Part shown: piece by piece, positions 17,453-64,000 of the stretch
How positions within the stretch are numbered: the first letter of the stretch is position 1
Layout of the letters: every line of letters starts with the position of its first letter
From: a virus
IMG/VR virus record: IMGVR_UViG_3300028416_000014
Coordinates: 3,429-67,428 of that record
Reading direction: 5' to 3' (one strand)
DNA length: 64,000 bases
Position numbers and translations under genes: made by a program
Notes under the pieces: generated by a model
Database searches by the model: none
What the model was told of the DNA's origin: nothing
Seen by the model: only the letters and a program-made list of their open reading frames with translations

Positions 17453-20400
17453 TTATAAATATCGTATGGTGGAAAAACCATCTATTTTGTTAATATCTAT
17501 TATCTTATCAACCATATCACGTGTTTTATCAATGTGAGATATTGTAACTATAAAATCAAACTGCGTTTTTAGGTAATCAAACAATAAATATAATGAATTG
17601 AAGTTACCACTATCCAATGAACCAAACCCCTCATCAATAGCTATAAAATTAGGTCGTGGTAAGTTTGATACATTCGTTAGTGCTGTTCTAATTGCTACCG
17701 ATGATATGAACCGTTCCATACCACTTGATAATTCCAATGGCCAATATTTATCATCAGAATATGCTATATATGAATTTATATTTTTACCATCGGTGTTTAG
17801 TAGTATCTGAAAATCTACTAATGGATTTAATATGTTGTTGATTTCAATTTCTAACTTTGGTAATATGTTGGATATTAATTGATATGGTATACCATCTCGC
17901 TTTACACATGATAGGTATGATTCATAACCCTCATACTTGTTTTCCATAGTTTCAAGCGTATCAATTGATGCACTTATATTTTCGATTGTATTAGTGGATA
18001 TACTCACATTACCACTAATATCAACTATGGATTCATTTATTTCACCTATAGCTTCATCCATATCACTTAATGATATCCTATGTTCATTTATCTTTTCGTT
18101 TAATTTTGAATTATATTGAATTAAAACTTTTTTTTCTATCCAATTCTGAATGGATTGATTTGTAGATTCTAGTGAAATATTTAGATTTTGTAATTCCAAT
18201 TTACAAGAATTAGATATTAGTTTCAACCTATCAATTTCATTTTCAAGCTCTAATATCGATACGTTCAACTCCTTTACTTCTGTTAGTGTGTCAGTTACAT
18301 CGTGCTTTTTAACCCCAATAGATGCACTATCGAATTCACCACCAAGTGTAAGTAATTTCATAGATATAAGCCTAATTTCATTTTCTAAATTTTTAGCTTG
18401 CTTTGCAAATGGTGTATTTTTATTAGCTACACAATGGGTGCACCCATCATCGAAAGATAAAGAACCAATACCATCTAAGTGTTTTTGTTTATGTGACATA
18501 TCATTTTCCAATTCAGATACTTGCAATTGAATTTTATCTAATAATTTGGAGTAATGTTGATATTTGGTGTAGCTTTCTTTTAGTGATTCAATGTTAAATT
18601 TAGAATATTCCATATTCAAGCAGTTTAAAGTAGTACCTTTTTTTGAAAGTATATCAATGTACTCCCCATACTCAATCTGCTTTTTTTGTATTTCATTTTC
18701 AAGATTATCTCTATCTGTAGTTAATTCTTCTATATCGATATTAGTTATATCAATTGACTTTATTTGAGATAACAATGTCTCTATTTTATTAGATAAGTCG
18801 TTTCTATTTAGTTTTAATTTATTTAATTTTAATTTAGTGTCTGATAATATAGCATTCTGCTTTTTAAATTCAATTTTTGATTGTGATAGTTTTTCCGGTA
18901 AGTTTCTATTTTTATAATCCTTAACCAAAGCACTTAGTTCTTTTATATCATCGCTAGCTATTTGATACAACTTTTCAAATACGTTAATATTTAAAAACTG
19001 AGCTAATAGTTCCTTTCTTTCTTTTTGTGATTTATTAATGAACCCACCGCTATTGTTTTGGTTTGACATGGCTGTTAATACAAATTCATCATAAGAACCA
19101 ACGTACTGTCTTATTATTGAATTAGTTTCCCTACGTTCTTCACCATTTAATGAATGTGTTTCACCATCTATAATACAGTAAAACTCGACATTAACTTTTA
19201 CAGTACCCCGTTTGGGTGATTTTTTACCAATTCGTTCAATGTAATAATCTATACCATTTATTTCAAAAACATACTTACAACTGAATTGTGATTTTTGGTT
19301 ATTTAATACATCAATAGCCTTTGATGTTCTTGAACATTTATCAAATATACAAAATGATAAAGCATCCCATAATGATGATTTTCCACTTGCATTTGGCGCA
19401 AATATACCATAAGTACCATTTAAATTTTGAAAATCAATGATATTATTTTCACCATATGAAAACATATTTGAAAATTCAAATCGTTTAGGTTTCCAAATTA
19501 TATTTTTAAGCTTGTTATTATTAGTGATTCTGTTGTTAATATCAGTATTTATTGATGTTACTACATCAATCTGCGTATCACTTAGGATAAGTTTATCGTT
19601 CAAAAATTCTTTAATAAGTTTATTTTGAAATCCAACATCATCCAAGTTATGAATTGATAAGCTTGATTTTTTATTGGTGCTTTCATTTACATTAAGTACT
19701 TTTTGTATGGATAATTCCTGTACCTTGCAATTTGTCTTTATATTGGTAACTATTTTATCCAACTGTGATTGTGTTGTGTTGTTAGCTCTGATTCGTATTC
19801 TCGGCTTAGTTGGTATCTCAGGATTACCAATTAATTTGCCATTTTGTACATCTAAAGTAACATATCCATAATCATTATGTATTGGTACGAATTCAGATTT
19901 TTTAGTATCAACATCCCATACCAAAATACCATGTTCGTTATATTTAGCTTCTGAGTGGTTCTGCATAATAGTTGAACCACAATATTTAACAGTCCCACTA
20001 TCATTTAAAGATTGATTTGGAACGTGTATATCACCTAATAGTACTAAATCGTAACCATTAAATGAGTCAATATTTACATTCTTATTTTCTATCTGAAATC
20101 CATGTTCTGTTTTTACGTTATTAACAGGCCCATGATATAATGCTATTTTATAATCACCACTAACATCGTTTGATTTTATTATATTTTTCGAATCACCAAA
20201 TACAGATGTATGTGAAAATGAAATACCACCCATTTGCCAAACACCACTATCTTTTAAGTAATGTAAGTTTTTATGGTTTATAGCATTTACAATCGGTGTA
20301 AGCGCATCCATTCTAGATGGGTTATTCAGATTAGCATCGTGGTTTCCCGGTATCAATATGGTTGGTAATAAATCAGATAGTCTTTTTAGAAATGTTTGAG

Positions 20401-20623
20401 TCATTTCTATAACTTCAGGTGTCATATCGGTTTTAGCATGGACTATATCACCGGCTAATACAATAACAGATTCTTTGGTTTTTGTATCTGAAATATATTT
20501 ATATAGTCTATTAAAAACTTCTCTATATTCTTTGTGTCGTTTAAGGTTTCTTATATGTACATCAGCAATATGGTAAATTTTACCTATATTACCCTTATAA
20601 TCAATCTTTATTGGTTCTAGCAT
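17453..20623 (-). CDS. Mre11/SbcD-Rad50/SbcC fusion (gp47-gp46-like) recombination nuclease
   Basis: ADVH, AGDIVH, PGNHD and LGDIH phosphoesterase motifs, then APNASGKS, a coiled coil with CTHC hook, LSSGME, IDEGFGSLD and ISH. Confidence 0.93.
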   Translation of the reverse strand: MLEPIKIDYKGNIGKIYHIADVHIRNLKRHKEYREVFNRLYKYISDTKTKESVIVLAGDIVHAKTDMTPEVIEMTQTFLKRLSDLLPTILIPGNHDANLNNPSRMDALTPIVNAINHKNLHYLKDSGVWQMGGISFSHTSVFGDSKNIIKSNDVSGDYKIALYHGPVNNVKTEHGFQIENKNVNIDSFNGYDLVLLGDIHVPNQSLNDSGTVKYCGSTIMQNHSEAKYNEHGILVWDVDTKKSEFVPIHNDYGYVTLDVQNGKLIGNPEIPTKPRIRIRANNTTQSQLDKIVTNIKTNCKVQELSIQKVLNVNESTNKKSSLSIHNLDDVGFQNKLIKEFLNDKLILSDTQIDVVTSINTDINNRITNNNKLKNIIWKPKRFEFSNMFSYGENNIIDFQNLNGTYGIFAPNASGKSSLWDALSFCIFDKCSRTSKAIDVLNNQKSQFSCKYVFEINGIDYYIERIGKKSPKRGTVKVNVEFYCIIDGETHSLNGEERRETNSIIRQYVGSYDEFVLTAMSNQNNSGGFINKSQKERKELLAQFLNINVFEKLYQIASDDIKELSALVKDYKNRNLPEKLSQSKIEFKKQNAILSDTKLKLNKLKLNRNDLSNKIETLLSQIKSIDITNIDIEELTTDRDNLENEIQKKQIEYGEYIDILSKKGTTLNCLNMEYSKFNIESLKESYTKYQHYSKLLDKIQLQVSELENDMSHKQKHLDGIGSLSFDDGCTHCVANKNTPFAKQAKNLENEIRLISMKLLTLGGEFDSASIGVKKHDVTDTLTEVKELNVSILELENEIDRLKLISNSCKLELQNLNISLESTNQSIQNWIEKKVLIQYNSKLNEKINEHRISLSDMDEAIGEINESIVDISGNVSISTNTIENISASIDTLETMENKYEGYESYLSCVKRDGIPYQLISNILPKLEIEINNILNPLVDFQILLNTDGKNINSYIAYSDDKYWPLELSSGMERFISSVAIRTALTNVSNLPRPNFIAIDEGFGSLDSGNFNSLYLLFDYLKTQFDFIVTISHIDKTRDMVDKIIDINKIDGFSTIRYL

Positions 20624-48559: not shown

Positions 48560-48626
48560 ATAACAACAGCCCCATAACCAAACACCCTACACTATATTAT
48601 ACGATGTCTAGCTCTAAAAGGTTACA
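48560..48626 (-). promoter_or_regulatory. Repeated phage promoter TGTAAC-N17-CGTATAAT
   Basis: Full match to the repeated element, including the leader. Confidence 0.8.
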
Positions 48627-51066: not shown

Positions 51067-51136
51067 CAACAGCCCCATAACCAAACACCCTACACTATAT
51101 TATACGAAAAAAGTGTAACAAATGTTACACTTTTTA
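51067..51136 (-). promoter_or_regulatory. Repeated promoter with perfect 13-bp inverted repeat (copy B)
   Basis: AAAAAGTGTAACA-AA-TGTTACACTTTTT overlaps TGTAAC-N17-CGTA. Confidence 0.8.
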
Positions 51137-55149: not shown

Positions 55150-55153
55150 AAAG

Positions 55154-55238
55154 TACCCGAAGTGGGAATCGAACCCACACTCCAACAATTGGAACAGAAT
55201 TTTAAGTCCTGCGTGTCTACCAATTCCACCATTCGGGC
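55154..55238 (-). tRNA. tRNA-Leu(TAA)
   Basis: Cloverleaf with long variable arm; loop CT-TAA-AA. Confidence 0.92.
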
Positions 55239-55246
55239 TTATTCAG

Positions 55247-55331
55247 CGGAAAGAGTGGGATTCGAACCCACACATCAAATCTATGATGTACAGATTAGCA
55301 GTCTGCTGTATTACCACTCTACCATCTTTCC
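55247..55331 (-). tRNA. tRNA-Ser(GCT)
   Basis: Long variable arm; loop CT-GCT-AA. Confidence 0.92.
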
Positions 55332-55335
55332 ATAG

Positions 55336-55410
55336 TGCACCTAATAGGATTCGAACCTATGACCCCCTCGGTGTAAACGAGGTGCTCTGAACCAACTGAG
55401 CTATAGGTGC
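55336..55410 (-). tRNA. tRNA-Val(TAC)
   Basis: Stem CCTCG/CGAGG; loop TT-TAC-AC. Confidence 0.92.
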
Positions 55411-55703
55411 TAAAACAAATTAATTAGTATTGGTGCTACTTTGTATCCGAAAAAAGCACCAACGGCTGTCGGTATTGGAAAAACTATAAACTTACCAACA
55501 TTAGTAACATATTTAGGTCTATTTATAACCTTACCTAAGAAAAAATAATACATTAGATATGTTATCAAAACAGGCAAATCATGCCCTAATTTGATACTTA
55601 CGATTATACTAGCCCCAAGTAACCCATAAGTAAAATTACTTAAACTATGCAAAACTACTTCAGAAACAGTTATAACTTCTTTTTTGTTTTTGTTCTTACC
55701 CAT
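55410..55703 (-). CDS. Small membrane protein inside the tRNA array
   Basis: 97 aa with three hydrophobic segments. Confidence 0.7.
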   Translation of the reverse strand: MGKNKNKKEVITVSEVVLHSLSNFTYGLLGASIIVSIKLGHDLPVLITYLMYYFFLGKVINRPKYVTNVGKFIVFPIPTAVGAFFGYKVAPILINLF

Positions 55704-55728
55704 ATGTAAATTATTTAATTTTTAAAAG

Positions 55729-55802
55729 TGGTCCCTGTAGGACTTGAACCTACGACCAACGGGTTATGAGTCCGTTGCTCTAACCAACTGAGCTAAGAGA
55801 CC
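55729..55802 (-). tRNA. tRNA-CAT (Ile2-type or elongator Met)
   Basis: Loop CT-CAT-AA, G1-C72; body resembles tRNA-Ile2. Confidence 0.85.
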
Positions 55803-55807
55803 TTTTG

Positions 55808-55880
55808 TGGTAATGATAGGATTCGAACCTATGACTCACGGTGCTTCAAACCGATGCTCTACCAACTGAGCTACATCACC
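55808..55880 (-). tRNA. tRNA-Phe(GAA)
   Basis: Loop TT-GAA-GC. Confidence 0.88.
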
Positions 55881-55887
55881 ATATTAG

Positions 55888-55961
55888 TTGTCCTAACCAG
55901 ATTTGAACTGATGACCTTTCACTTATCAGGCGAACGCTCTAACCAACTGAGCTATAGGACA
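55888..55961 (-). tRNA. tRNA-Ile(GAT)
   Basis: Loop CT-GAT-AA. Confidence 0.92.
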
Positions 55962-55968
55962 ATAAAAG

Positions 55969-56042
55969 CGGTCTGGACGGGATTCGAACCCGCGACCCTC
56001 TGCGTGACAGGCAGATATTCTAACCAACTGAACTACCAGACC
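55969..56042 (-). tRNA. tRNA-Asp(GTC)
   Basis: Loop CT-GTC-AC. Confidence 0.93.
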
Positions 56043-56050
56043 TTTATTTG

Positions 56051-56135
56051 CGGAAGATGTAGGATTCGAACCTACGATACCTTTCAGTATGCTTGATTTC
56101 AAGTCAAGTGCATTCGACCACTCTGCCAATCTTCC
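56051..56135 (-). tRNA. tRNA-Ser(TGA)
   Basis: Long variable arm; loop CT-TGA-AA. Confidence 0.92.
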
Positions 56136-56147
56136 AATATTATTTTG

Positions 56148-56219
56148 TACTCCATAGGGGAATCGAACCCCTCTTACCAGGATGAAAACCTGGCGTCCTA
56201 GCCGATAGACGAATGGAGC
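56148..56219 (-). tRNA. tRNA-Glu(TTC)
   Basis: Stem CCAGG/CCTGG; loop TT-TTC-AT. Confidence 0.92.
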
Positions 56220-56225
56220 AGTACC

Positions 56226-56291
56226 GGTAAGAACGGTAACATATAGCATCTTTGTATGAACTTGTTCTACAACGCTTTTTTCGTTCTTACC
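56226..56291 (-). ncRNA. Bulged rod-shaped RNA between tRNAs
   Basis: 10-bp closing stem GGTAAGAACG/CGTTCTTACC, central bubble and inner helices. Confidence 0.5.
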
Positions 56292-56308
56292 TAATGTTCA
56301 AACATTTG

Positions 56309-56380
56309 TCGCAGAGCTGGGAATCGAACCCAGGACTTACAGGTTATGAGCCTGTCGAGCTACCGCTGCTCTACTCTGCA
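56309..56380 (-). tRNA. tRNA-fMet-like (CAT)
   Basis: Non-Watson-Crick 1:72 pair, GAGC/GCTC D stem, loop CT-CAT-AA. Confidence 0.85.
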
Positions 56381-56385
56381 ATTTG

Positions 56386-56459
56386 TCGCCATCAAGGGAG
56401 TCGAACCCATATCCTCTCGGCCGTATGACCTAGCGCTTTACCGTTTTAGCTTCATGGCT
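56386..56459 (-). tRNA. Atypical tRNA with 8-nt anticodon loop (TCATACGG)
   Basis: D and T arms intact; imperfect acceptor and anticodon stems. Confidence 0.6.
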
Positions 56460-56524
56460 AATAATTTACAATATCAATTTCTTCTGCAGCTTCCATATCA
56501 ATGTTAAATTATGTTTCTTATTTG

Positions 56525-56672
56525 TGGCCCATAGGGGACTCGAACCCTAGACTTAATCAAACATATTGGGTTGCCGGCCGGACAAGCCATATCTGATAAT
56601 GTCTGTGTACAGTTAATGCCAATTATCTCTTAGACTAATAGAAGAAGGCCTTCTTCTCTGTACCTTTGAACC
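56525..56672 (-). ncRNA. Expanded tRNA-framed ncRNA A (148 nt)
   Basis: GGTTCA/TGGGCC acceptor, discriminator A plus C, T-loop TTCGAGT, two large internal stem domains. Confidence 0.7.
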
Positions 56673-56675
56673 ATG

Positions 56676-56749
56676 CGTCCTGAATAGGATTCGAACCTAT
56701 GACCCTCTGATTAACAGTCAGATGCTCTAACCAACTGAGCTATCAAGAC
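56676..56749 (-). tRNA. tRNA-Asn(GTT)
   Basis: Loop CT-GTT-AA. Confidence 0.93.
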
Positions 56750-56755
56750 AAATTT

Positions 56756-56824
56756 TAATTGCAATAGGAGTTTAACCTATATTTCTTAGATAAGTACTAA
56801 GCGTATTAATTATACTATACAATT
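56756..56824 (-). tRNA. Atypical tRNA-Lys(CTT)-like RNA 1
   Basis: All four stems paired; D loop AATTA, T loop TTAAACT, anticodon loop TA-CTT-AT. Confidence 0.65.
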
Positions 56825-56893
56825 ATCCACAATAGGATTTTAACCTATATCCCATCAGTTAAGAACTGAGTACATTTGTTATGCTATGTGACT
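56825..56893 (-). tRNA. Atypical tRNA-Lys(CTT)-like RNA 2
   Basis: D loop AACAA, T loop TTAAAAT, anticodon loop TT-CTT-AA. Confidence 0.65.
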
Positions 56894-56894
56894 G

Positions 56895-56965
56895 CACGTC
56901 TGTAAGGAATCGAACCCTACCACCGAAGTTTTGGAGACCTGGTCGGCACCTTGCCTGTCAGACGT
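56895..56965 (-). tRNA. tRNA-Trp(CCA)
   Basis: ACGTCTG/CAGACGT acceptor; loop CT-CCA-AA; compact atypical D arm. Confidence 0.85.
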
Positions 56966-56973
56966 ATTTAAAA

Positions 56974-57114
56974 AATTGAAGAGTGGTTTTTAAAGGAACT
57001 TTGGTGGCTCCCCCTTCAGATGTTTACATCATCAATTAATTACTTATCCTTTTTATAATCTTGTCTCTTTATTGTATAAACGAACAATGGAATACAAGCG
57101 TTTGGAAAATAAGT
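56974..57114 (-). ncRNA. Structured spacer RNA(s): bulged rod (57042-57114) plus three-way junction (56974-57037)
   Basis: Helices ACTTAT/ATAAGT, CTTGT/ACAAG and ATTGT/ACAAT; AATTGA/TCAATT encloses two hairpins. Confidence 0.45.
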
Positions 57115-57124
57115 TAAACCAGTG

Positions 57125-57197
57125 TCCACCGAGAAGGAATCGAACCTTCACTCCCCTGATTAAAAGTCAGATGCTTTGCCAATTAAGCTACCGGTGG
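57125..57197 (-). tRNA. tRNA-Lys(TTT)
   Basis: Loop CT-TTT-AA. Confidence 0.92.
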
Positions 57198-57214
57198 TTT
57201 TATTAAAAACATAG

Positions 57215-57285
57215 AGCGGATACCAAGATTCGAACTTGGAACTGAAGATTGGAAATCTACAATGTTACCATTACACCATATCCGC
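57215..57285 (-). tRNA. tRNA-Gly(TCC)
   Basis: Loop TT-TCC-AA, discriminator T. Confidence 0.92.
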
Positions 57286-57301
57286 TTGAAAAAAACCCAC
57301 A

Positions 57302-57314
57302 ATGTCAAAGAACT
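57302..57314 (-). promoter_or_regulatory. boxA-like antitermination element
   Basis: AGTTCTTTGACAT just downstream of a promoter and upstream of tRNAs. Confidence 0.7.
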
Positions 57315-57321
57315 AACACCC

Positions 57322-57377
57322 ACTATAACCAAACAACCTACACTATATTATACGATGTCTATCATCAAAAGGTTACA
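57322..57377 (-). promoter_or_regulatory. Repeated promoter TGTAAC-N17-CGTATAAT inside the tRNA array
   Basis: Matches the repeated element. Confidence 0.8.
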
Positions 57378-57416
57378 ATAAATATGATTTTTTTTAATTT
57401 TTTTTAATTTTTTTTG

Positions 57417-57489
57417 TGGAGCTATTCGGACTTGAACCGAAAATAATAGAATGCAAATCTATCGTGATAGCCAATTTCACCATAGCCCC
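57417..57489 (-). tRNA. tRNA-Ala(TGC)
   Basis: GGGGCTA acceptor with G3:U70; loop TT-TGC-AT. Confidence 0.92.
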
Positions 57490-57495
57490 ATATCG

Positions 57496-57566
57496 AGGTT
57501 GGTGTAGGAATCGAACCTACTTAAAAAGGGTTGCAACCTTTCACCTAACCATTCGGACAACCAACC
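57496..57566 (-). tRNA. tRNA-Cys(GCA)
   Basis: Loop TT-GCA-AC, discriminator T. Confidence 0.92.
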
Positions 57567-57573
57567 ATAATTG

Positions 57574-57656
57574 TGGAAGTAGAGAGATTCGAACTCCCGA
57601 AACCATAGGTAACAGATTTACAGTCTGCCTGCTTTGAGCCACTTGCATATACTTCC
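57574..57656 (-). tRNA. tRNA-Tyr(GTA)
   Basis: Long variable arm; loop CT-GTA-AA. Confidence 0.92.
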
Positions 57657-57660
57657 GAAA

Positions 57661-57855
57661 ATGAATGCTTAGCAGGACTCGAACCTGCGCGCTTATGTAG
57701 TTTTTCTCAACGGACTGTTTTACCTTCTAGTCAGTAAAATTCCCCACCGTGTTTCGATTCAGAAACTTACCTAGGTATTTCAACTACTTGCTCTGTAAAC
57801 TGTGTGATGGGCGTAAGAGCGCACCAGTGACTCCAACTGAGCTATAAGCATTCAT
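57661..57855 (-). ncRNA. Expanded tRNA-framed ncRNA B (about 195 nt), or tRNA with two insertions
   Basis: 11-bp terminal stem, TAGCTCAGTTGG...AGAGC D arm with a ~38-nt insert, GTAGTT/AACTAC stem enclosing ~75 nt, canonical T arm. Confidence 0.75.
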
Positions 57856-57868
57856 TGTTTTTTAATAG

Positions 57869-57942
57869 TACTACTGGTGGGATTCGAACCCACACTTATA
57901 TGATTCTAAGTCATATGCCTCTGCCAATTGGGCTACAGTAGT
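57869..57942 (-). tRNA. tRNA-Leu(TAG) with short variable region
   Basis: Loop CT-TAG-AA; no long variable arm. Confidence 0.88.
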
Positions 57943-57949
57943 GTTTTTG

Positions 57950-58024
57950 GGTGCTATATCAGAATCGAACTGATAACCTTTGGAATCACAATCCAACGCT
58001 CTAACCGATTGAGCTAATAACACC
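57950..58024 (-). tRNA. tRNA-His(GTG)
   Basis: Encoded G-1:C73; loop TT-GTG-AT. Confidence 0.92.
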
Positions 58025-58029
58025 ATTTG

Positions 58030-58101
58030 AGCGAAAGGCGGGATTCGAACCCACAACTTTCTACTTGGTAAGCAGATACTCTACCATTGAGTTACTTTCG
58101 C
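58030..58101 (-). tRNA. tRNA-Gly(ACC)
   Basis: GCGAAAG/CTTTCGC acceptor, discriminator T; stem TCTGC/GTAGA; loop TT-ACC-AA. Confidence 0.88.
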
Positions 58102-58106
58102 AGTTG

Positions 58107-58180
58107 AGCCATCTATCAGAATCGAACTGATAACCTGTTGATTACAAATCAACTGCTCTAGCCAATTGAGCTAAGATGGC
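58107..58180 (-). tRNA. tRNA-Thr(TGT)
   Basis: Loop TT-TGT-AA. Confidence 0.92.
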
Positions 58181-58185
58181 ATTTG

Positions 58186-58259
58186 TACATCCGATAGGAT
58201 TCGAACCTATGACCTACGCATTAGAAGTGCGTTGCTCTATCCAGCTGAGCTACGGATGC
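58186..58259 (-). tRNA. tRNA-Arg(TCT)
   Basis: Loop CT-TCT-AA, A20. Confidence 0.93.
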
Positions 58260-58300
58260 TTTAATAAAAAACCCACAATATCAAACAACATTTATCTTAG

Positions 58301-58375
58301 TCGGAATTACAGGATTCGAACCTGTGGCTTCTACATCCCAAATGTAGCACTCTAACCTAACTGAGCTAAATTCCG
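58301..58375 (-). tRNA. tRNA-Pro(TGG)
   Basis: C1-G72; loop TT-TGG-GA. Confidence 0.92.
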
Positions 58376-58379
58376 ATAG

Positions 58380-58707
58380 TGGAGCTGGTGGGATTCGAAC
58401 CCACGTCCAATCATACTTTCACTATAAGGTTTACAGTAATTAGGATAAGTTTTTCTAAACTTCCAAAACTGATATCATTAAAAATGATTGGGAATCATTT
58501 ACGGTTAATCTATCAATACCTTATTTTACCATCTACTTCCTTTTACATCTTATTCAACTACAAGCATACTTACTGAAATGATGTGCTTTCTTACCTAAGA
58601 ATTAGGCTGCGATAGCAAGAGAAGTGTCGCCACTTAAAGGTTTGATGTAGGTCATCACCCATACTGAACTTATAACTTCCATACGCTGTCAATTCCATGT
58701 CAGCCCC
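58380..58707 (-). ncRNA. ssrA: tmRNA, tag peptide GDTSLAIAA*
   Basis: 5' GGGGCTGACATGGAATTGAC, 3' GACGTGGGTTCGAATCCCACCAGCTCCA, internal ORF GGC GAC ACT TCT CTT GCT ATC GCA GCC TAA. Confidence 0.95.
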
Positions 58708-58732
58708 AATTTTCAAATAACTTTTTTTGTTG

Positions 58733-58806
58733 TAACCCATAAGAGATTCGAACTCCTAACCTTCTGGTTCGTAGCCAGATACTCTATCCAATTGAGCTAA
58801 TGGGTT
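58733..58806 (-). tRNA. tRNA-Arg(ACG)
   Basis: Loop CT-ACG-AA. Confidence 0.92.
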
Positions 58807-58814
58807 TTTAATTG

Positions 58815-58886
58815 TTGGTTCATTAGGATTCGAACCTAAACTAACTGCGTCAAAGGCAGTTGTGCTAACCGTTACACTATGAACCA
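58815..58886 (-). tRNA. tRNA-Gln(TTG)
   Basis: T1-A72; loop CT-TTG-AC. Confidence 0.9.
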
Positions 58887-58892
58887 ATACCT

Positions 58893-59150
58893 TTAGTTAA
58901 TGTATTTAGTAGGATTTGAATTTCGTACACGTTGTTTTGTGTAAATGTGAACTGTATCACTACCATAAATTGCGTAAAATTCATCAATCAATTCACCATC
59001 GTCGTGAAACCTATCATCACCATAACGAAGTGTATACGTTTTATCCGGCATCCGTACACATTTGCCGGATTTTAATGATGGTGAAACAATCCAAGGTGAA
59101 CAACTTGAAAAAACAAACGCAAAAACCGAAAAAATTAAAAACTTATTCAT
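58893..59150 (-). CDS. Putative lipoprotein
   Basis: MNKFLIFSVFAFVFSSC lipobox-like start. Confidence 0.7.
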   Translation of the reverse strand: MNKFLIFSVFAFVFSSCSPWIVSPSLKSGKCVRMPDKTYTLRYGDDRFHDDGELIDEFYAIYGSDTVHIYTKQRVRNSNPTKYIN

Positions 59151-59189
59151 ATGTATCAAAATATTTTTAAAAAGTCAAAAAATCAAAAC

Positions 59190-59232
59190 AACTTACACTA
59201 TATTATACGAAAAAATTCCTAATTATGTTACA
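59190..59232 (-). promoter_or_regulatory. Repeated promoter TGTAAC-N17-CGTATAAT upstream of the RNA array
   Basis: Same boxes and spacing. Confidence 0.8.
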
Positions 59233-59541
59233 TTTTTTTTATTTTTTTTTAAGTTTTTCTTAAATTATTTATCAAAAAAAGTGCGGATACTATGTTAATA
59301 GCATAAAATGTGTACTTTAGTGTAGGTACAACCGATGCATAAAACAATAACATCGATAAAACGAATAAAATCCAAAACCTACTTTTATAAATTTTTGTTT
59401 TCATGTTTATTTTTTTTTGTTATATGGTAAAATTGCTGTTCATCACCCGGGTCGGATACTATAACACCATTAATACTTTTTTTCTTAGATATTAATGTAT
59501 TCAAAGCAGTTCTTAGCTTTTCTATCCGTTGTTTTTCTTTA

Positions 59542-59754
59542 TCATCCATCTTCATTTCGCTTTGATATTTCTGTTTTTAGGAATTCAACCAAGTTTTGAG
59601 CTTCTATAGCTTGCCCTATTTTAATACCAAGCTTCAGAAGTGTATATGCATCGGTATCAAATTGATTAAATACACCATAAACTTCACCATTAAAGGTGAT
59701 TTTAAATTCATTTTCGTTTTCAGTTGGTGTAAATATTAAATTAGAATCATTCAT
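59542..59754 (-). CDS. Hypothetical protein
   Basis: 70-aa ORF. Confidence 0.6.
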   Translation of the reverse strand: MNDSNLIFTPTENENEFKITFNGEVYGVFNQFDTDAYTLLKLGIKIGQAIEAQNLVEFLKTEISKRNEDG

Positions 59755-59881
59755 AACTTTTTCTTTATTTTTAAAAATTGATTATATGATTTGTTCATAA
59801 ATAACAAACCATGATATATTAAAATTACATATAAAATGGTATTAAATATGATACTTTCCAATGAATTCATAAGTAATTGGG

Positions 59882-60412
59882 TTAGCTTGTTACATAATAT
59901 TGGTGTTTTTTGGTAGCCAATACAAATTTATATTTTGGGTTTCCACTATGATATGTACATTTATGATTTGAAAAATACTTAGTATCACCCATATCATAAT
60001 ATACCACACCATTTAATACGTTTTTAATTTCCGATTCAATTAATGGTTTATATTTTTCACTTTTAGTAGTAAACCAATATCTACCACCACCACGTTTTAC
60101 AGTACCACTACCATACGATGTATTACTATATAACATATTAGATATGTAAGTAAACCCACTCATTTTAAATCGATTTAACATCACCTGAATCATACAGTTG
60201 ATATCAACACTATCATTCTTACTTTGAGTTAAAATATAAGCCGCAAGTGTATCTAAATTAGGTAATCTAGAATCACATACAGTTACCGTATCAATATCAA
60301 TGGTAAGTGTAGTATCTATAATATCACAAAACTTGCGATTAATACTATTATCATTTTTCAAAGAAGTGTTAAAACAACTAACACAAATGTAAAACAGAAC
60401 AAAATATTTCAT
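59882..60412 (-). CDS. SleB/cell-wall hydrolase-like protein (degenerate)
   Basis: LAAYILTQS...QVMLNR...KYFSN...HQYY; hydrophobic N-terminus. Confidence 0.5.
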   Translation of the reverse strand: MKYFVLFYICVSCFNTSLKNDNSINRKFCDIIDTTLTIDIDTVTVCDSRLPNLDTLAAYILTQSKNDSVDINCMIQVMLNRFKMSGFTYISNMLYSNTSYGSGTVKRGGGRYWFTTKSEKYKPLIESEIKNVLNGVVYYDMGDTKYFSNHKCTYHSGNPKYKFVLATKKHQYYVTS

Positions 60413-60554
60413 AAATTATTACTTTAGATTTTTAACATCCCTATTCCAAGAATCAATATCATCAGCGATATCAGTATACAAACTACAAGCAATCAAAGAA
60501 AGAACGCAAATCCAAATAATCATAATAACATTTTTTAAATATGAAAAATAACAA

Positions 60555-60612
60555 CCACCACAACCAAACAACCTACACTATATTATACGATGTCTATAGT
60601 CAAAAGGTTACA
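60555..60612 (-). promoter_or_regulatory. Repeated promoter TGTAAC-N17-CGTATAAT
   Basis: Matches the repeated element. Confidence 0.8.
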
Positions 60613-60745
60613 ATAAATATCATTTTTTTTAAAAAAATATTACCCCCATCTCCAGAATCAATAAACCTTTTAAGATTATTCATTTCATCATCACTTAAAT
60701 CTTCATTTAAAAACCATTCCCTTAATAATTGTTTTATATGTTGTT

Positions 60746-60973
60746 TCATAGTTTAAATTTAGATAAAATGGTATCCACATTATCAATATTTGATTTATCC
60801 ACTTGCCAACTTCCATAAAACCCACCCATCCATAAATTTTGAAATCCAATTATGAATGCATGTCTTGGAATCATCGGTTTATCAAACTCAGTTATGATAG
60901 GATGTTCTTCAGCAAATGAGTTGGATTCTGAAATAAAGAAATGATTTACAGATTCTCTAATATAATATTTCAT
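60746..60973 (-). CDS. Hypothetical protein
   Basis: Start set at MKYYIR. Confidence 0.55.
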   Translation of the reverse strand: MKYYIRESVNHFFISESNSFAEEHPIITEFDKPMIPRHAFIIGFQNLWMGGFYGSWQVDKSNIDNVDTILSKFKL

Positions 60974-60983
60974 AAGTACCAAA

Positions 60984-61274
60984 TTAAATATGTGAATATA
61001 ACCCATAACCACCGGCCGGGTCTATATCTGAATCCATATCATCACATTCATCATCAATAGTTTCCCATTGGTTACGTTCATTGACATCTTCAAGACACAT
61101 AATTGCTTCTTTTAAGCAATCTATCATTTCAGATTTCATATCATTAATATCCGATGCTCTAACACAATGTTTAATTTCATACACATACTCCTTAATCCAA
61201 TCTAAGGTTTTAACCGCTTCACTAAAGTTAGGTTCACAATCCCAACCATCTTCATATGTTTTTTTGATAGCCAT
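60984..61274 (-). CDS. Hypothetical protein
   Basis: 96 aa ending DIDPAGGYGLYSHI. Confidence 0.7.
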   Translation of the reverse strand: MAIKKTYEDGWDCEPNFSEAVKTLDWIKEYVYEIKHCVRASDINDMKSEMIDCLKEAIMCLEDVNERNQWETIDDECDDMDSDIDPAGGYGLYSHI

Positions 61275-61310
61275 AATATAATTAAATTTTAAAAATGAAA
61301 AAAATCAAAC

Positions 61311-61368
61311 ACCCCATAACGAAACAACCTACACTATATTATACGATGTCTAGCTCTAAAATGTTTCA
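61311..61368 (-). promoter_or_regulatory. Repeated promoter TGAAAC-N17-CGTATAAT
   Basis: Near-identical to 43721-43780; overlaps the end of the upstream ORF. Confidence 0.8.
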
Positions 61369-61562
61369 AAAACAGAATAAGGATTTAAATATTTATATTC
61401 AGAAACCAATGATGCAGTTACACCTTTAGCATTATAGTTACGGTTTTTAATCATCCGTTTGGCTTCTGTTTTATTTTTAGCAGTAACAATGTAATCATGT
61501 CTAAATCTATTAGATGTGTAACCACCGGTGTAGTATGATACTACATAATCTTTATTATCCAT
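61356..61562 (-). CDS. Hypothetical protein
   Basis: 68 aa with VTAKNKTEAK. Confidence 0.65.
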   Translation of the reverse strand: MDNKDYVVSYYTGGYTSNRFRHDYIVTAKNKTEAKRMIKNRNYNAKGVTASLVSEYKYLNPYSVFETF

Positions 61563-61667
61563 CTTTATTTAGTTTTATTACTTTTAACAATATTGGTTAT
61601 AGTTTGTTTAATTACACAATACCAACTTAAAAAAACAAAAATCAACTTTATTATAAAAAAATCCATT

Positions 61668-61850
61668 TTATTTTTCGTTTATATAATCTTCTAAAAAAAT
61701 GTATCCACAACCATATAAACAGTAAACTTGAGTTTTGTCCTCACCCTCATTTTCTATTAATGGCTCCGGTGTCCAACTTTCTTTACAACTTGGGCATTTA
61801 AAAAACCCATTTTCAATACAACTATTTAAAACAAGCATTTGATTATCCAT
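61668..61850 (-). CDS. Small zinc-ribbon protein
   Basis: CPSC...CLYGCG; start set at MDNQML. Confidence 0.65.
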   Translation of the reverse strand: MDNQMLVLNSCIENGFFKCPSCKESWTPEPLIENEGEDKTQVYCLYGCGYIFLEDYINEK

Positions 61851-61860
61851 CTTTATATTT

Positions 61861-62199
61861 TTAGTATCCAACAAAATTAATTTTAACACAATCAGAAACA
61901 AGACCACTTTTAACTGCGTAATCCCATTCTTGATTCAACCAATAGTTAGGAACTCTTTCCAACTCCGTTAAACACCGGTCCCATATCTCACCAATAGTAA
62001 ATCCTTCACCAAACTCACCACTACCCAATACACAACTTAACTCATTAAGTGTATCTCTATCATCAGCTTTTCCAGCCTCATTGATTTTGATTTGAAGTTC
62101 AGCTTTCATTAAATCAGCAACCGTTTCGTTCCATTCGTACATTTCGTTTGACCAAGGTTTTGTTACTGTTGGTGGTGTAATAGATTTCATACTTGTCAT
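61861..62199 (-). CDS. Hypothetical protein
   Basis: 112-aa ORF. Confidence 0.7.
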   Translation of the reverse strand: MTSMKSITPPTVTKPWSNEMYEWNETVADLMKAELQIKINEAGKADDRDTLNELSCVLGSGEFGEGFTIGEIWDRCLTELERVPNYWLNQEWDYAVKSGLVSDCVKINFVGY

Positions 62200-62254
62200 A
62201 TTTTATTTATTTAAATGTGATTTAATCCCCTCATTCCCTATCAACCTTACTATA

Positions 62255-62311
62255 TAAAGATACGATAAGTATAGCAAAAAGTCAAGTCCTAAAGTGTTAA
62301 GGAAATGTTAA
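62255..62311 (-). promoter_or_regulatory. Bacteroidota sigmaA-type promoter with upstream TTAACA direct repeats
   Basis: CTTG-N20-TATCTTTA; TTAACA x2 at 11-bp period (62295-62311). Confidence 0.65.
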
Positions 62312-62314
62312 AGT

Positions 62315-62563
62315 TTAAGATAACAACTTAGATAATAATAACTGATTACTCTGCATCGATTCAACCGCATCAACAGCTTCTTGCCATTTGTTAACTTCAT
62401 TAGAGGCTTCCAATATGTCCCCCAAACCAACATCAGAATGATGGTTCATATGTTTTTCGGATGTTTCATTCCAGTGTTCTTTAGCCAAAGCCAACTTATG
62501 TTTTAATTCACCCAATAACAAATCGGATTTTGTCCACCTTAATAACTTTTTATGTGATTTCAT
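62315..62563 (-). CDS. Hypothetical protein
   Basis: 82-aa ORF. Confidence 0.65.
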   Translation of the reverse strand: MKSHKKLLRWTKSDLLLGELKHKLALAKEHWNETSEKHMNHHSDVGLGDILEASNEVNKWQEAVDAVESMQSNQLLLSKLLS

Positions 62564-62596
62564 ATTGTATTTTTAAGTATTTTAGATATAAACAAA

Positions 62597-62845
62597 TTAT
62601 TTTTTAACTCTACATTTTTCAAAGAAAAAGATGTAATCTTCAAGTGATATTCTCATAGTGTTACCTCCATTAATATCCTCAGCGTAGTACCTTGAAGAAG
62701 TGATTTCTCCTTCATCAAATGGGTTTAATGTATCAACGCTCCAAACGTATAATTCAGTTGTGGTTTCAAACGGCTCTGTCATATTGATTGCGTTAATATC
62801 ATTCTTAGCCATTTCGTATCTTTTCATTGCATTTAACTTTTTCAT
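62597..62845 (-). CDS. Hypothetical protein
   Basis: Start set at MKKLNA. Confidence 0.65.
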   Translation of the reverse strand: MKKLNAMKRYEMAKNDINAINMTEPFETTTELYVWSVDTLNPFDEGEITSSRYYAEDINGGNTMRISLEDYIFFFEKCRVKK

Positions 62846-62900
62846 ATTATCTTTATTTAAATGTGATTCAATAACCAATCCCCCCATCAACCGTACAATA

Positions 62901-62967
62901 CTAAGATAGAGCATTTAAAGCAAAAAAACAAGCTTTAAATGTTAAAATTTTGTTAAGAAAATGTTAA
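62901..62967 (-). promoter_or_regulatory. Bacteroidota sigmaA-type promoter with upstream TTAACA direct repeats
   Basis: CTTG-N20-TATCTTAG; TTAACA x3 at 11-bp period (62940-62967). Confidence 0.65.
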
Positions 62968-62988
62968 AGTCCTTTTAAATTATTTAAT

Positions 62989-63240
62989 TTAATTCCAATT
63001 TAAATTCGAAACATATACATCAAAAGCACTATCATTAGTAGCAACACCACCACCATAATAGCTATTAGTAGCTTCAGAAACTATTTCCAAATCACCCTCA
63101 GATAAGTGTGACCACCATTCATCAGAACAATCAGCGATATCGACACCTTCATTTGTATACCAACCACCATCAGCTAAAATAGGATAAATGGTAATAGTTT
63201 CATCATTAAAATAACAACCAACAGATTCTAAAACAATCAT
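62989..63240 (-). CDS. Hypothetical acidic protein
   Basis: 83-aa ORF. Confidence 0.65.
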   Translation of the reverse strand: MIVLESVGCYFNDETITIYPILADGGWYTNEGVDIADCSDEWWSHLSEGDLEIVSEATNSYYGGGVATNDSAFDVYVSNLNWN

Positions 63241-63291
63241 ATAAAATATTTTTTAAAGTTATCAAATAATTACAATCTTAATTAACGTATC

Positions 63292-63328
63292 ATACTATAT
63301 TATACGTATAAATCGGTGTGATGTTACA
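63292..63328 (-). promoter_or_regulatory. Repeated promoter variant TGTAAC-N16-CGTATAAT
   Basis: Same boxes with a 16-bp spacer. Confidence 0.7.
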
Positions 63329-63366
63329 AAAAAACTGGCGTTTTTCCGTTCATATTATTATTTAAA

Positions 63367-63425
63367 TCATAACAGTTGCTAAAAACAACTCCTTTTAGTC
63401 GCAGATGTTTAGCTTATTGTTATCG
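63367..63425 (-). mobile_element. attC-like recombination site (59 bp)
   Basis: CGATAAC-AATAA-GCTAAAC...TTTTAGC-AACT-GTTATGA, starting 4 bp after a stop codon. Confidence 0.7.
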
Positions 63426-63429
63426 GCAA

Positions 63430-63627
63430 TTACTTAAACTCCCTACCCCAATCATCTGTTTTTTCATCTCCATCATAGATTATTGCTGAATAAGTAAATC
63501 TTGGGAATGCTTTTACAGCTTTACCGCAACATTTAGTTATTGTTAAAACGGGATTTTGGTAGCTTTCCATATTTCTTTCACTATTTTCTGGTATTTCGAG
63601 TTCTTTACCGCAATGTGGACAAATCAT
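63430..63627 (-). CDS. Cassette-like small zinc-binding protein
   Basis: MICPHCG...KCCG, 65 aa; flanked by attC-like sites; no promoter motif of any class seen. Confidence 0.75.
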   Translation of the reverse strand: MICPHCGKELEIPENSERNMESYQNPVLTITKCCGKAVKAFPRFTYSAIIYDGDEKTDDWGREFK

Positions 63628-63646
63628 ATTTTTAAATTTTAAAAGC

Positions 63647-63709
63647 CGATAACAATAAATAAAATCCATACGCCTATCGGCTTGACGTATTTTATTAGAA
63701 CCGTTAGCT
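63647..63709 (-). mobile_element. attC-like recombination site (63 bp)
   Basis: AGCTAAC-GGTTC-TAATAAAAT...GCC-GATA-GGC...ATTTTATT-TATT-GTTATCG, starting 4 bp after a stop codon. Confidence 0.7.
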
Positions 63710-63713
63710 GCAA

Positions 63714-63965
63714 TTAAAATTTAAATAGTTGCAACTTTTCAATCTCTTGGTTATACATCCGCTTTATAAAAGGTTTAAATGGTTCGTAATCATTCTTATC
63801 TTCAATCCATTCCCTTTCATCCATTTCACTATTCCATATCATAATCTCGCCAAATTTTACAATATCTTCATATCCATTTGTAGAGTAGCTAAAGTCTCTA
63901 CCTATTTCACCAACCTTTTCATAAAGCTCTTGGTTTAGCTCATTAATAATTTCTAAGTAATTCAT
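63714..63965 (-). CDS. Cassette-like hypothetical protein
   Basis: 83 aa; stop is followed by TTGCAGCTAAC. Confidence 0.7.
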   Translation of the reverse strand: MNYLEIINELNQELYEKVGEIGRDFSYSTNGYEDIVKFGEIMIWNSEMDEREWIEDKNDYEPFKPFIKRMYNQEIEKLQLFKF

Positions 63966-64000
63966 ATCTTAAATTTTTTTGTTTAATCTTGACATTAATA

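Follow-up and report, generated by a model that had tools for sequence, protein, structure and literature searches.

Probable edge of an integron-type gene cassette array in a marine phage

Near the right-hand end of a 64,000-nt stretch of viral DNA (the window, which comprises the last 64,000 bases of the 67,428-b IMG/VR record IMGVR_UViG_3300028416_000014), two small open-reading frames, ORF2 and ORF1, alternate on the minus strand with two hairpin sites, A and B, that resemble the attC sites of integrons, which are bacterial gene-collecting devices. We consider it likely that this region is the edge of an integron-type gene cassette array in a marine phage. The evidence lies in the anatomy of the two sites, the covariation of unit ends among relatives, precise breakpoints, variation in natural populations and the link between arrays and a recombinase gene in related loci. 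Phage integron pieces have been in print only since 2023 (Qi et al. 2023, PMC9892861), mostly as isolated predicted sites. Here, natural phage populations differ by whole cassettes with single-base-precise junctions, one site family is common to Flavobacteriaceae chromosomes, a cultured Polaribacter phage and dozens of uncultured viral contigs, and the viral arrays are tied to a small Xer-like recombinase, not to a classical integron integrase. Taken by itself, the contig has a modest yield of two weak sites, two genes of unassigned function and no enzyme.

Hybrid sites and exchangeable units around ORF1 and ORF2

On the minus strand ORF2 (63714..63965) is followed by site A (63645..63711), ORF1 (63430..63627), site B (63365..63427), a promoter-like motif and an ordinary gene string. 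Measured from the R'' 7-mer to the R' 7-mer, site A spans 63 nt (63709..63647) and site B 59 nt (63425..63367), and the two sites stand 228 nt apart. Read along the coding strand, site A consists of TAAC (63706-63703), the spacer GGTTC, arms at 63697-63686 and 63672-63658, TATT and GTTA (63653-63650), whilst site B consists of TAAC (63422-63419), AATAA, arms at 63413-63406 and 63387-63378, AACT and GTTA (63373-63370). Both have the outer and inner paired boxes, spacers and variable loop of the R/L box layout, and both carry the AAC...GTT end triplets. An initial annotation, made from the sequence alone, had described imperfect hairpins of these two lengths with this TAAC-spacer-arms-GTTA layout, and had noticed that both small genes end in TAA-TTGC-nnn-TAAC; both descriptions are accurate on the minus (coding) strand, where the stop-codon ends form near-identical 14-mers. 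It is also correct that the two flanks of ORF1 are complementary: GTTATCGGC at 63653-63645 and GCCGATAAC at 63427-63419 are exact reverse complements, inside a wider inverted repeat that matches at 17 of 19 positions (63414-63432 / 63640-63658). The 67,428-b record contains two exact copies of the pattern TAATTGCNNNTAAC, at the ends of ORF1 and ORF2, and none of its reversed control. A covariance model built from 22 sites, all from other loci, was run over both strands of the whole window; site A came out on top with 26.4 bits (E 0.037), followed by site B with 19.7 bits (E 0.53), the latter matched on the plus strand, and the next match scored 16.1 bits.

Each site is a hybrid of two units. 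In site A the R'' box GCAGCTAAC comes from the ORF2 unit, whereas the spacer GGTTC, the arms and the R' box GTTATCGGC come from the ORF1 unit; in site B the R'' box GCCGATAAC comes from the ORF1 unit, and the inner hairpin together with GTTATGATT is shared with a relative, L024. The loop of site A (63680-63671) and the loop of the hairpin upstream of ORF2 in relatives (L013, ca. 125-135) have GCCGATAGGC in common, which resembles the ORF1 end GCCGATAAC.

Relatives show where the units begin and end. Six viral and 24 metagenome loci encoding ORF2 were fetched, and in every viral relative the DNA similarity to the window ends inside or at site A. All six close copies of ORF2 (L013, L022, L023, L024, L025 and L031) are flanked by GTTAGCTG upstream and CAGCTAAC downstream, with GTTAGCTG standing 35-36 nt before the ATG in each, whilst more distant homologues carry GTTAGCACA..TGTGCTAAC (L017), GTTAGGCACA..TGTGCCTAAC (L035) and GTTAGCCTTA..TAAGGCTAAC (L037); the outer GTTA/TAAC is constant and the inner bases covary. 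The 30 nt after CAGCTAAC are unrelated among seven close ORF2 copies (mean ungapped identity 0.29). Three of these loci (L013, L022 and L023) share a 348-353-nt unit at 99.4% identity, with flanks that differ on both sides, and this unit runs from just past the upstream AAC through the hairpin, GTTAGCTG, the leader and ORF2 to CAGCTAAC. From the bounds of the shared block, a unit is a hairpin plus a gene, with its joints at the TAAC of the coding strand. In L024 the inner part of site B stands directly 3' of ORF2-CAGCTAAC, and window and L024 differ by a single indel of ca. 284 nt (63702..63419) that holds ORF1. The putative ORF1 cassette (284 nt, 63419..63702, minus strand) accordingly comprises the site A hairpin, GTTATCGGC, a 17-nt leader, ORF1, TAATT and GCCGATAAC, whilst ORF2 is the cargo of the cassette whose 3' end is CAGCTAAC (63710-63703). 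The crossover had been annotated at G^TT, which holds on the plus strand of the window, that is, at the coding-strand TAAC beside the upstream gene, and fails at the coding-strand GTTA where it had been drawn; with the crossover next to the upstream gene, the hairpin belongs to the gene downstream of it and not to the gene before.

The same joints are seen in seawater populations. The stretch was found in more than 20 seawater and viral-fraction metagenome runs, and contigs of four runs were compared with the window, two of which (X9 and X20) leave parts of 62600-64000 uncovered. Contig 25 of X9 has no differences over 63061-63422 and then continues into other sequence, contig 6 of X14 has none over 63458-63706 and then likewise departs, and a contig of X20 ends at this same base; the plus-strand GTTA of site B ends at 63422, and that of site A at 63706. 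Depth in X14 is ca. 190-270 over 62600-63370 and 746 over site B, which is a high-copy node there, and 3-8 over ORF1 and ORF2. From the contrast in depth and the contig breaks we conclude that the same phage backbone mostly carries other units at this place. The metagenome evidence consists of assembled contigs, which show adjacency and not rates or circles. Relatives and other metagenomes thus agree that units are gained, lost and re-ordered with precision at the conserved core; the initial annotation had suggested comparing related phages for such gain or loss. It had also predicted a further site past 64000. That base is the contig end, so the sequence beyond is unreadable in this record, but GTTAGCTG is found upstream of ORF2 in six of six relatives and in a metagenome contig overlapping 63862-63977: beyond 63977, X14 continues with the usual ORF2 leader, GTTAGCTG and its hairpin.

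Chained arrays and recombinases in phages and Flavobacteriaceae

Sites A and B belong to a wider family. A loose hairpin scan was noisy (87 matches against 55 expected; 79 against 58 in bacterial pattern loci and 135 against 61 in viral loci); only strict matches and chain pairing were used. The strict scan of 20 loci found arrays of up to nine chained sites in IMG/VR contigs. In these arrays the five variable R' bases of a site pair with the R'' of the next site at all five positions in 31 of 56 neighbour pairs, and at four of five in a further 11 (mean 3.95), the low values probably reflecting, for the most part, sites missed by the scan. Within single sites the pairing of R' with R'' averages 1.76 of 5 and is never complete (0/83). 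Array sites are hence hybrids, as in the window, where the pairing across ORF1 is 5/5, and the cross-complementarity that had been annotated as a cassette signature recurs, with other bases, around ORF2 homologues and dozens of small genes. An alignment of 22 family sites (alignment A3) has a consensus structure of 18 base pairs with TAAC and TGTTA as invariant columns. Sites fall into length classes of ca. 48, 87 and 125 nt, the short class keeping the loop TCGTTTTAATG whilst its stems covary (alignment A3; L238 2866-2923, L028 632-689, L297 17998-18055, L299 30003-30061); one short hairpin is identical in two unrelated contigs. For ten family sites of other loci the folds are better than those of shuffles (z -1.6 to -4.4), and the covariance model scores 40-86 bits on arrays on which it was not trained and 32-37 bits on the sites flanking ORF2.

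The family extends to cultured phage and to bacteria. The virulent Polaribacter phage P12002L has two strong sites adjoining DNA methyltransferase genes, on the strand of those genes, and viral array cargo includes C5 and N6 DNA methyltransferases, a phosphatase and a HAD-domain protein. A 14-base pattern representing the right half of the site matches many Flavobacteriaceae genomes, several with 2-3 matches per 8 kb, in Psychroserpens, Winogradskyella, Lacinutrix, Aquimarina, Polaribacter, Tenacibaculum and other genera. Contigs of Psychroserpens mesophilus and a complete Patiriisocius chromosome hold arrays that obey the same chain rule (Patiriisocius stretch L300, 2293-17651 and 17921-19051; further host stretches L286, L288 and L296). 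Some host sites, many of them in Patiriisocius, have CAAC/GTTG cores, to which the TAAC/GTTA scanner is blind; the Patiriisocius array was recognised by eye and recovered in a relaxed scan.

A recombinase gene accompanies the arrays in relatives. In two viral contigs, G009 (108 kb) and G012 (18.6 kb, which also encodes a phage DNA polymerase and UvsX-like and SbcC-like genes), the array is followed in the same direction by a gene for a 266-aa tyrosine recombinase, which starts 60-95 nt past the TAAC of the last cassette and whose product matches PF00589, with R, HxxR, H and Y motifs in the alignment. Relatives of this protein were found in 54 IMG/VR loci, 35 of which have at least 1.5 kb of sequence upstream, and in 34 of these 35 at least two same-strand sites lie directly upstream of the recombinase. 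Upstream, the strand of the recombinase gene carries 1.28 sites per kb; the other strand and the downstream side carry 0.22-0.32 per kb. The best-fitting family for the 266-aa proteins is NF040815 (XerA/integron integrase; 195/188 bits against a cut-off of 220), whilst TIGR02249, with a cut-off of 265, gives 158/155 bits split over two stretches; XerA, XerC and XerD models fit about as well as integron-integrase models, and all scores fall under the curated cut-offs. The proteins align end to end with XerC-like and XerA structures, whereas with IntI4 (2a3v) they align in two pieces and residues ca. 218-265 have no counterpart, so that the IntI-specific segment is lacking. The recombinase beside phage arrays in relatives is Xer-like, without the segment specific to IntI. 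The cassette reading of the initial annotation is supported, with the crossover on another side and a non-canonical enzyme in relatives, of which the contig itself carries none. Between the last TAAC and the recombinase start codon, both viral records have a stretch rich in TAT(T/C)ATATAT (L297 15945-16020; L298 914-1010, minus strand), and the first GTT next to the Patiriisocius recombinase is likewise preceded by TATATA; such a stretch is a candidate attI-like place.

The host recombinases are longer (375-390 aa), Xer/IntI-like, and encoded upstream of the cassette genes in the same direction. They score 225 bits against the cut-off of 220 for the NCBIfam family 'XerA/integron integrase' and lie below the integron-integrase cut-off. 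The phage recombinase is 43% identical to the 375-aa chromosomal recombinase of Psychroserpens, relative to which host type it lacks an N-terminal extension of ca. 107 aa. In four host genomes family sites occur within 0.3-4.8 kb after the recombinase; in G003 and G005 the recombinase lies 56-132 nt from the contig end, which makes an array link unreadable there, and in G014 the best recombinase homologue is 520 kb away from the site-bearing stretch.

Phage and host arrays differ in gene polarity. In integron cassettes the gene comes first and its attC second, and the recombined strand is the one that does not carry the gene. In viral arrays 33 of 34 cassette ORFs (10 loci) are on the strand of site polarity, whereas in host arrays 30 of 32 genes are on the opposite strand and two on the same. 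As the hairpin moves with the downstream gene, phage cassette genes occupy the strand opposite to that used by host arrays, and a gene in front of its own attC, usual in the host arrays (30/32), is not the arrangement of the phage arrays. The strand with AAC in the 5' arm is coding in phages and non-coding in hosts, so the gene of a host cassette that entered a phage array would point the wrong way round. The difference points to two cassette pools, one in phages and one in hosts, that share one site family.

On the coding strand a unit consists of a 5-6-nt spacer, an imperfect hairpin, a 1-4-nt spacer and GTTA with ca. 5 unit-specific bases, followed by a short leader, one small gene and the reverse complement of those five bases with TAAC. 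Units are joined head to tail at TAAC|G, so that each site is a hybrid with its left arm from the prior unit and its hairpin and right arm from the next. We propose that a unit would leave as a circle, where its complementary ends would pair with each other to make the hairpin site whole; one strand would fold, a tyrosine recombinase of the Xer/IntI family would exchange that strand at the AAC core of the 5' arm, and replication would then resolve the product. Excision, strand exchange and resolution by replication would follow the mechanism of integrons. For this contig the enzyme might come from the remaining 63% of the genome, from a co-infecting phage or from the host. In a fuller picture, to which we would give an even chance, large marine Bacteroidota phages carry an integron-like system of their own, with a compact Xer-type recombinase of 266 aa that lacks the IntI segment, arrays in which hairpins bound up to 15 cassettes, and genes inverted relative to host arrays, hence separate pools with one chemistry; the phage pool would hold counter-defence genes such as DNA methyltransferases, and the window would be an array edge whose recombinase is encoded in the unsampled genome or borrowed.

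Competing explanations and known systems

Several observations weigh against the cassette reading. The 67,428-b record has no tyrosine recombinase (PF00589), which extends to the whole record the absence that the initial annotation had noted for the window, and G011, a 98%-complete viral record with six sites, has none either. The covariance support is marginal for site A and not significant for site B, which was matched on the opposite strand. As single-stranded DNA, site A folds at -7.0 kcal/mol (z -0.97) and site B at -6.4 kcal/mol (z -1.18), no better than shuffles, and with one mismatch allowed TAATTGCNNNTAAC is not enriched (four found, 2.84 expected). The two sites stand alone in 67 kb: GTTA-X...X'-TAAC pairs number 35 against 38-41 in shuffles, a whole-record site scan gives 27 against 12-26, which is background, and since the whole-contig searches are at background we count two sites only in the record. 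Among 62 strong viral sites, the core consensus RYYYAAC/GTTRRRY, as quoted in the available text of PMC9892861, fits the R' box in 13 and the R'' box in 8, and the window boxes AGCTAAC, CGATAAC, GTTATCG and GTTATGA all fail it. ORF2 copies that are 95-97% identical bear two unalignable upstream hairpins (L013/L022/L023 against L024/L025/L031), which means that not every exchange falls at TAAC. Two direct repeats, TAATTGCnnnTAAC, could by themselves give a deletion of the L024 type through slippage or homologous exchange. Circles, single-strand folding, cleavage, the acting enzyme and activity in this phage are parts of the mechanism that we infer. Sites A and B are weak members of their family, and on the window alone the cassette case would stay open; it is the relatives that decide it. 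A search of Rfam returned nothing at either site. The two sets of hairpins upstream of ORF2 indicate some exchange at or near the GTTA side as well.

The alternative that survives best, although we regard it as unlikely, is that the hairpins are hot spots of homologous or microhomology recombination between co-infecting phages, with no dedicated site-specific recombinase and in the manner of the promoter-stem-loop regulatory cassettes of T4-type phages, to which cleavage by the phage's own SbcCD-like nuclease might contribute. It would accommodate a contig that encodes an SbcC-like protein and no tyrosine recombinase, the recombinase-free sites of G011, the near-identical 14-mers at the ends of both ORFs, and the two different hairpins upstream of ORF2. 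However, the junctions fall at a 4-5-nt core and not across longer conserved stretches, homologous exchange would neither create nor keep unit-specific end complementarity (complete in 31 of 56 pairs), and in 34 of 35 loci the arrays are tied to a recombinase gene. In large virulent phages of the T4 type, small accessory genes of a hyperplastic region are parted by repeated promoter-early stem-loops at which genomes differ. Their repeats are near-identical, bear promoters and act through homologous exchange, whereas the sites described here vary, have no promoter match and carry unit-specific complementarity.

That the hairpins are only terminators or RNA processing signals, their complementarity arising by chance or through pairing of untranslated regions at the RNA level, we consider very improbable. 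The sites are intergenic, site B stands just before a promoter-like motif, and site A contains a perfect stem of 9 bp, richer in GC (AAGCCGATA / TATCGGCTT) and with TTTT after it, which is the minimum-energy fold of the plus strand, with a loop of 21 nt; moreover, covariation alone cannot separate DNA from RNA. A terminator scan of 58000-64000, however, returned three terminator-like sites, none of them at site A or B, and the explanation leaves precise unit gain, loss and reshuffling as well as the recombinase link unaccounted for. A fixed RNA role is also at odds with the host arrays, where the gene strand is reversed with respect to the same sites (30 opposite, two the same). The sites may additionally terminate transcription. 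Least probable of all is the transposable unit that the initial annotation had offered as an alternative, with ORF1 between terminal inverted repeats (63414-63432, 63640-63658) and moved by an end-recognising transposase: it has the 17/19 repeat around ORF1 in its favour, but the repeat beyond GTTA/TAAC differs in every unit so that there is no common transposase-binding end, the extra paired TTATT/AATAA lies in spacers of different units and the matching spacer in L024 is ACTAA, there is no target duplication besides the shared TAAC, and ORF1 occurs in just one other protein cluster.

Clusters of attC sites lacking an integron integrase (CALINs) are delimited by a distance rule for attC sites. 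The window has two sites close together, in agreement with the CALIN minimum of two sites given in the available text of PMC9892861, and the 67,428-b record has no PF00589 match. That text describes integron parts in 21 phages, including CALINs in 17 with P12002L among them, and its phage CALINs, like the region here, have at least two attC-like sites between small accessory genes and no integron integrase. As phage CALINs are already published there, the cassette idea is of a known kind. P12002L, part of that CALIN set, is the phage in which we find two sites of the present family beside methyltransferase genes, and methyltransferase cargo in the IMG/VR arrays is as in P12002L. The same text reports two predicted P12002L sites 'with divergent directions' and recombination of P12002L_attC2 into attI1 by IntI1; those two sites may be the ones found here. 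Chained arrays, a linked Xer-like recombinase and inverted gene polarity are not described in the available text of that study. For bacteria, the available text of the IntegronFinder 2 paper (PMC9024848) lists Bacteroidetes with only In0 elements and one complete integron (Salinibacter). In the collection of papers searched, we found no report of chained cassette arrays in many uncultured phages, of a link between phage arrays and a Xer-like recombinase without the IntI segment, or of inverted gene polarity or matching Flavobacteriaceae arrays.

With canonical integrons the phage arrays share imperfect hairpins, AAC...GTT cores, unpaired spacers and a variable loop, cassette-specific end pairing, head-to-tail arrays with crossover at the core, and, in relatives, a tyrosine recombinase gene adjoining the first cassette. 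They differ in that the recombinase lacks the IntI segment and scores below integron-integrase cut-offs, the 7-nt consensus is mostly unmatched, the recombinase gene lies downstream of the cassette genes in the same direction, and the gene is on the strand with AAC in the 5' arm, so that each hairpin precedes its gene. That strand corresponds to the bottom strand of integrons, which is the one recombined there. The Flavobacteriaceae arrays of Patiriisocius and Psychroserpens share with the phage arrays the core, GYRTAT..ATAYRC arms, the chain rule and the adjoining 43%-identical recombinase, and differ in gene strand and in having an N-terminally extended recombinase upstream. Xer recombination of other small modules is also known: in CTX phage a Xer recombinase acts on the hairpin of folded single-stranded phage DNA, and the pdif modules of Acinetobacter plasmids are small gene modules bounded by Xer sites in alternating orientation. 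The CTX and pdif sites are 28-bp and dif-like, whereas here hairpins of 48-127 nt with unit-specific ends form long co-oriented arrays. If the cassette reading is true, it would explain the turnover of hyperplastic regions in large marine phages, provide a second, simpler enzyme for the study of folded-single-strand recombination, and make cassette exchange, as against separate pools, between phage and host testable.

Cargo genes and the phage record

The cargo of the two window cassettes is of unassigned function. ORF2 (83 aa) has no Pfam match, belongs to a family of 31 clusters of unnamed metagenome proteins, and was not found by a close-relative scan of one-genome-per-species bacteria. In the ORF2 homologues of L018, L027 and L030 the leader TTTAAAACCAAAGAGAGATG precedes each small gene and no hairpin sites were seen; as these copies are without flanking sites, the ORF2 family also exists outside cassettes. 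ORF1 (65 aa, CxxC...CC) starts at an ATG at 63627, a longer frame from 63669 overlapping site A. It is weakly zinc-ribbon-like (Zn_Ribbon_1, E 0.041, below cut-off) and an ORFan, with one cluster (95% identical) among 5.8 billion proteins; IMG/VR gave just weak partial matches, to its CxxC start, and tblastn of ORF1 and 13 other small window proteins found no match in any fetched locus.

The record, an estimated 37% complete and with a G+C content of 31%, is a real phage, given its genes for a portal protein, a large terminase, a baseplate wedge protein and an SbcC-like nuclease, nearly all of its genes being on the minus strand. Its host is probably a member of the Flavobacteriaceae. No INPHARED phage matched 62000-64000 of the window in blastn, and the ORF at 62989-63240 has no relative in IMG/VR, so that no longer contig of this phage was obtained. 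Comparison of G000 with the recombinase-bearing contigs gave just three weak tblastx matches. The SbcC-like protein, a subunit of a palindrome-specific nuclease, is encoded at 17453-20623 (minus strand) of the window and also in the array-bearing phage L298 (6387-8417), and such a nuclease could act on hairpin sites.

Just downstream of site B, the promoter-like GTAACA-17-TATAAT (63299..63327, minus strand), a diverged copy of a motif with eight copies in the window, marks the boundary between the cassette stretch and the ordinary string of phage genes. The motif consists of GTAACA, 17 nt and TATAAT, then a conserved ATAGTGTAGGKTGTTTGGTTATGGGG leader, and its eight copies (0.11 expected) lie on the minus strand between 43740 and 61345, for example at 48586-48603, 51089-51106 and 60572-60589; a short hairpin overlapping the -35 box precedes some of them. 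This repeated promoter motif is an element separate from the cassette sites. The minus strand also carries 24 tRNA genes and a tmRNA gene in one block (55153-58886), the tmRNA gene (58379-58707) encoding the tag GDTSLAIAA.

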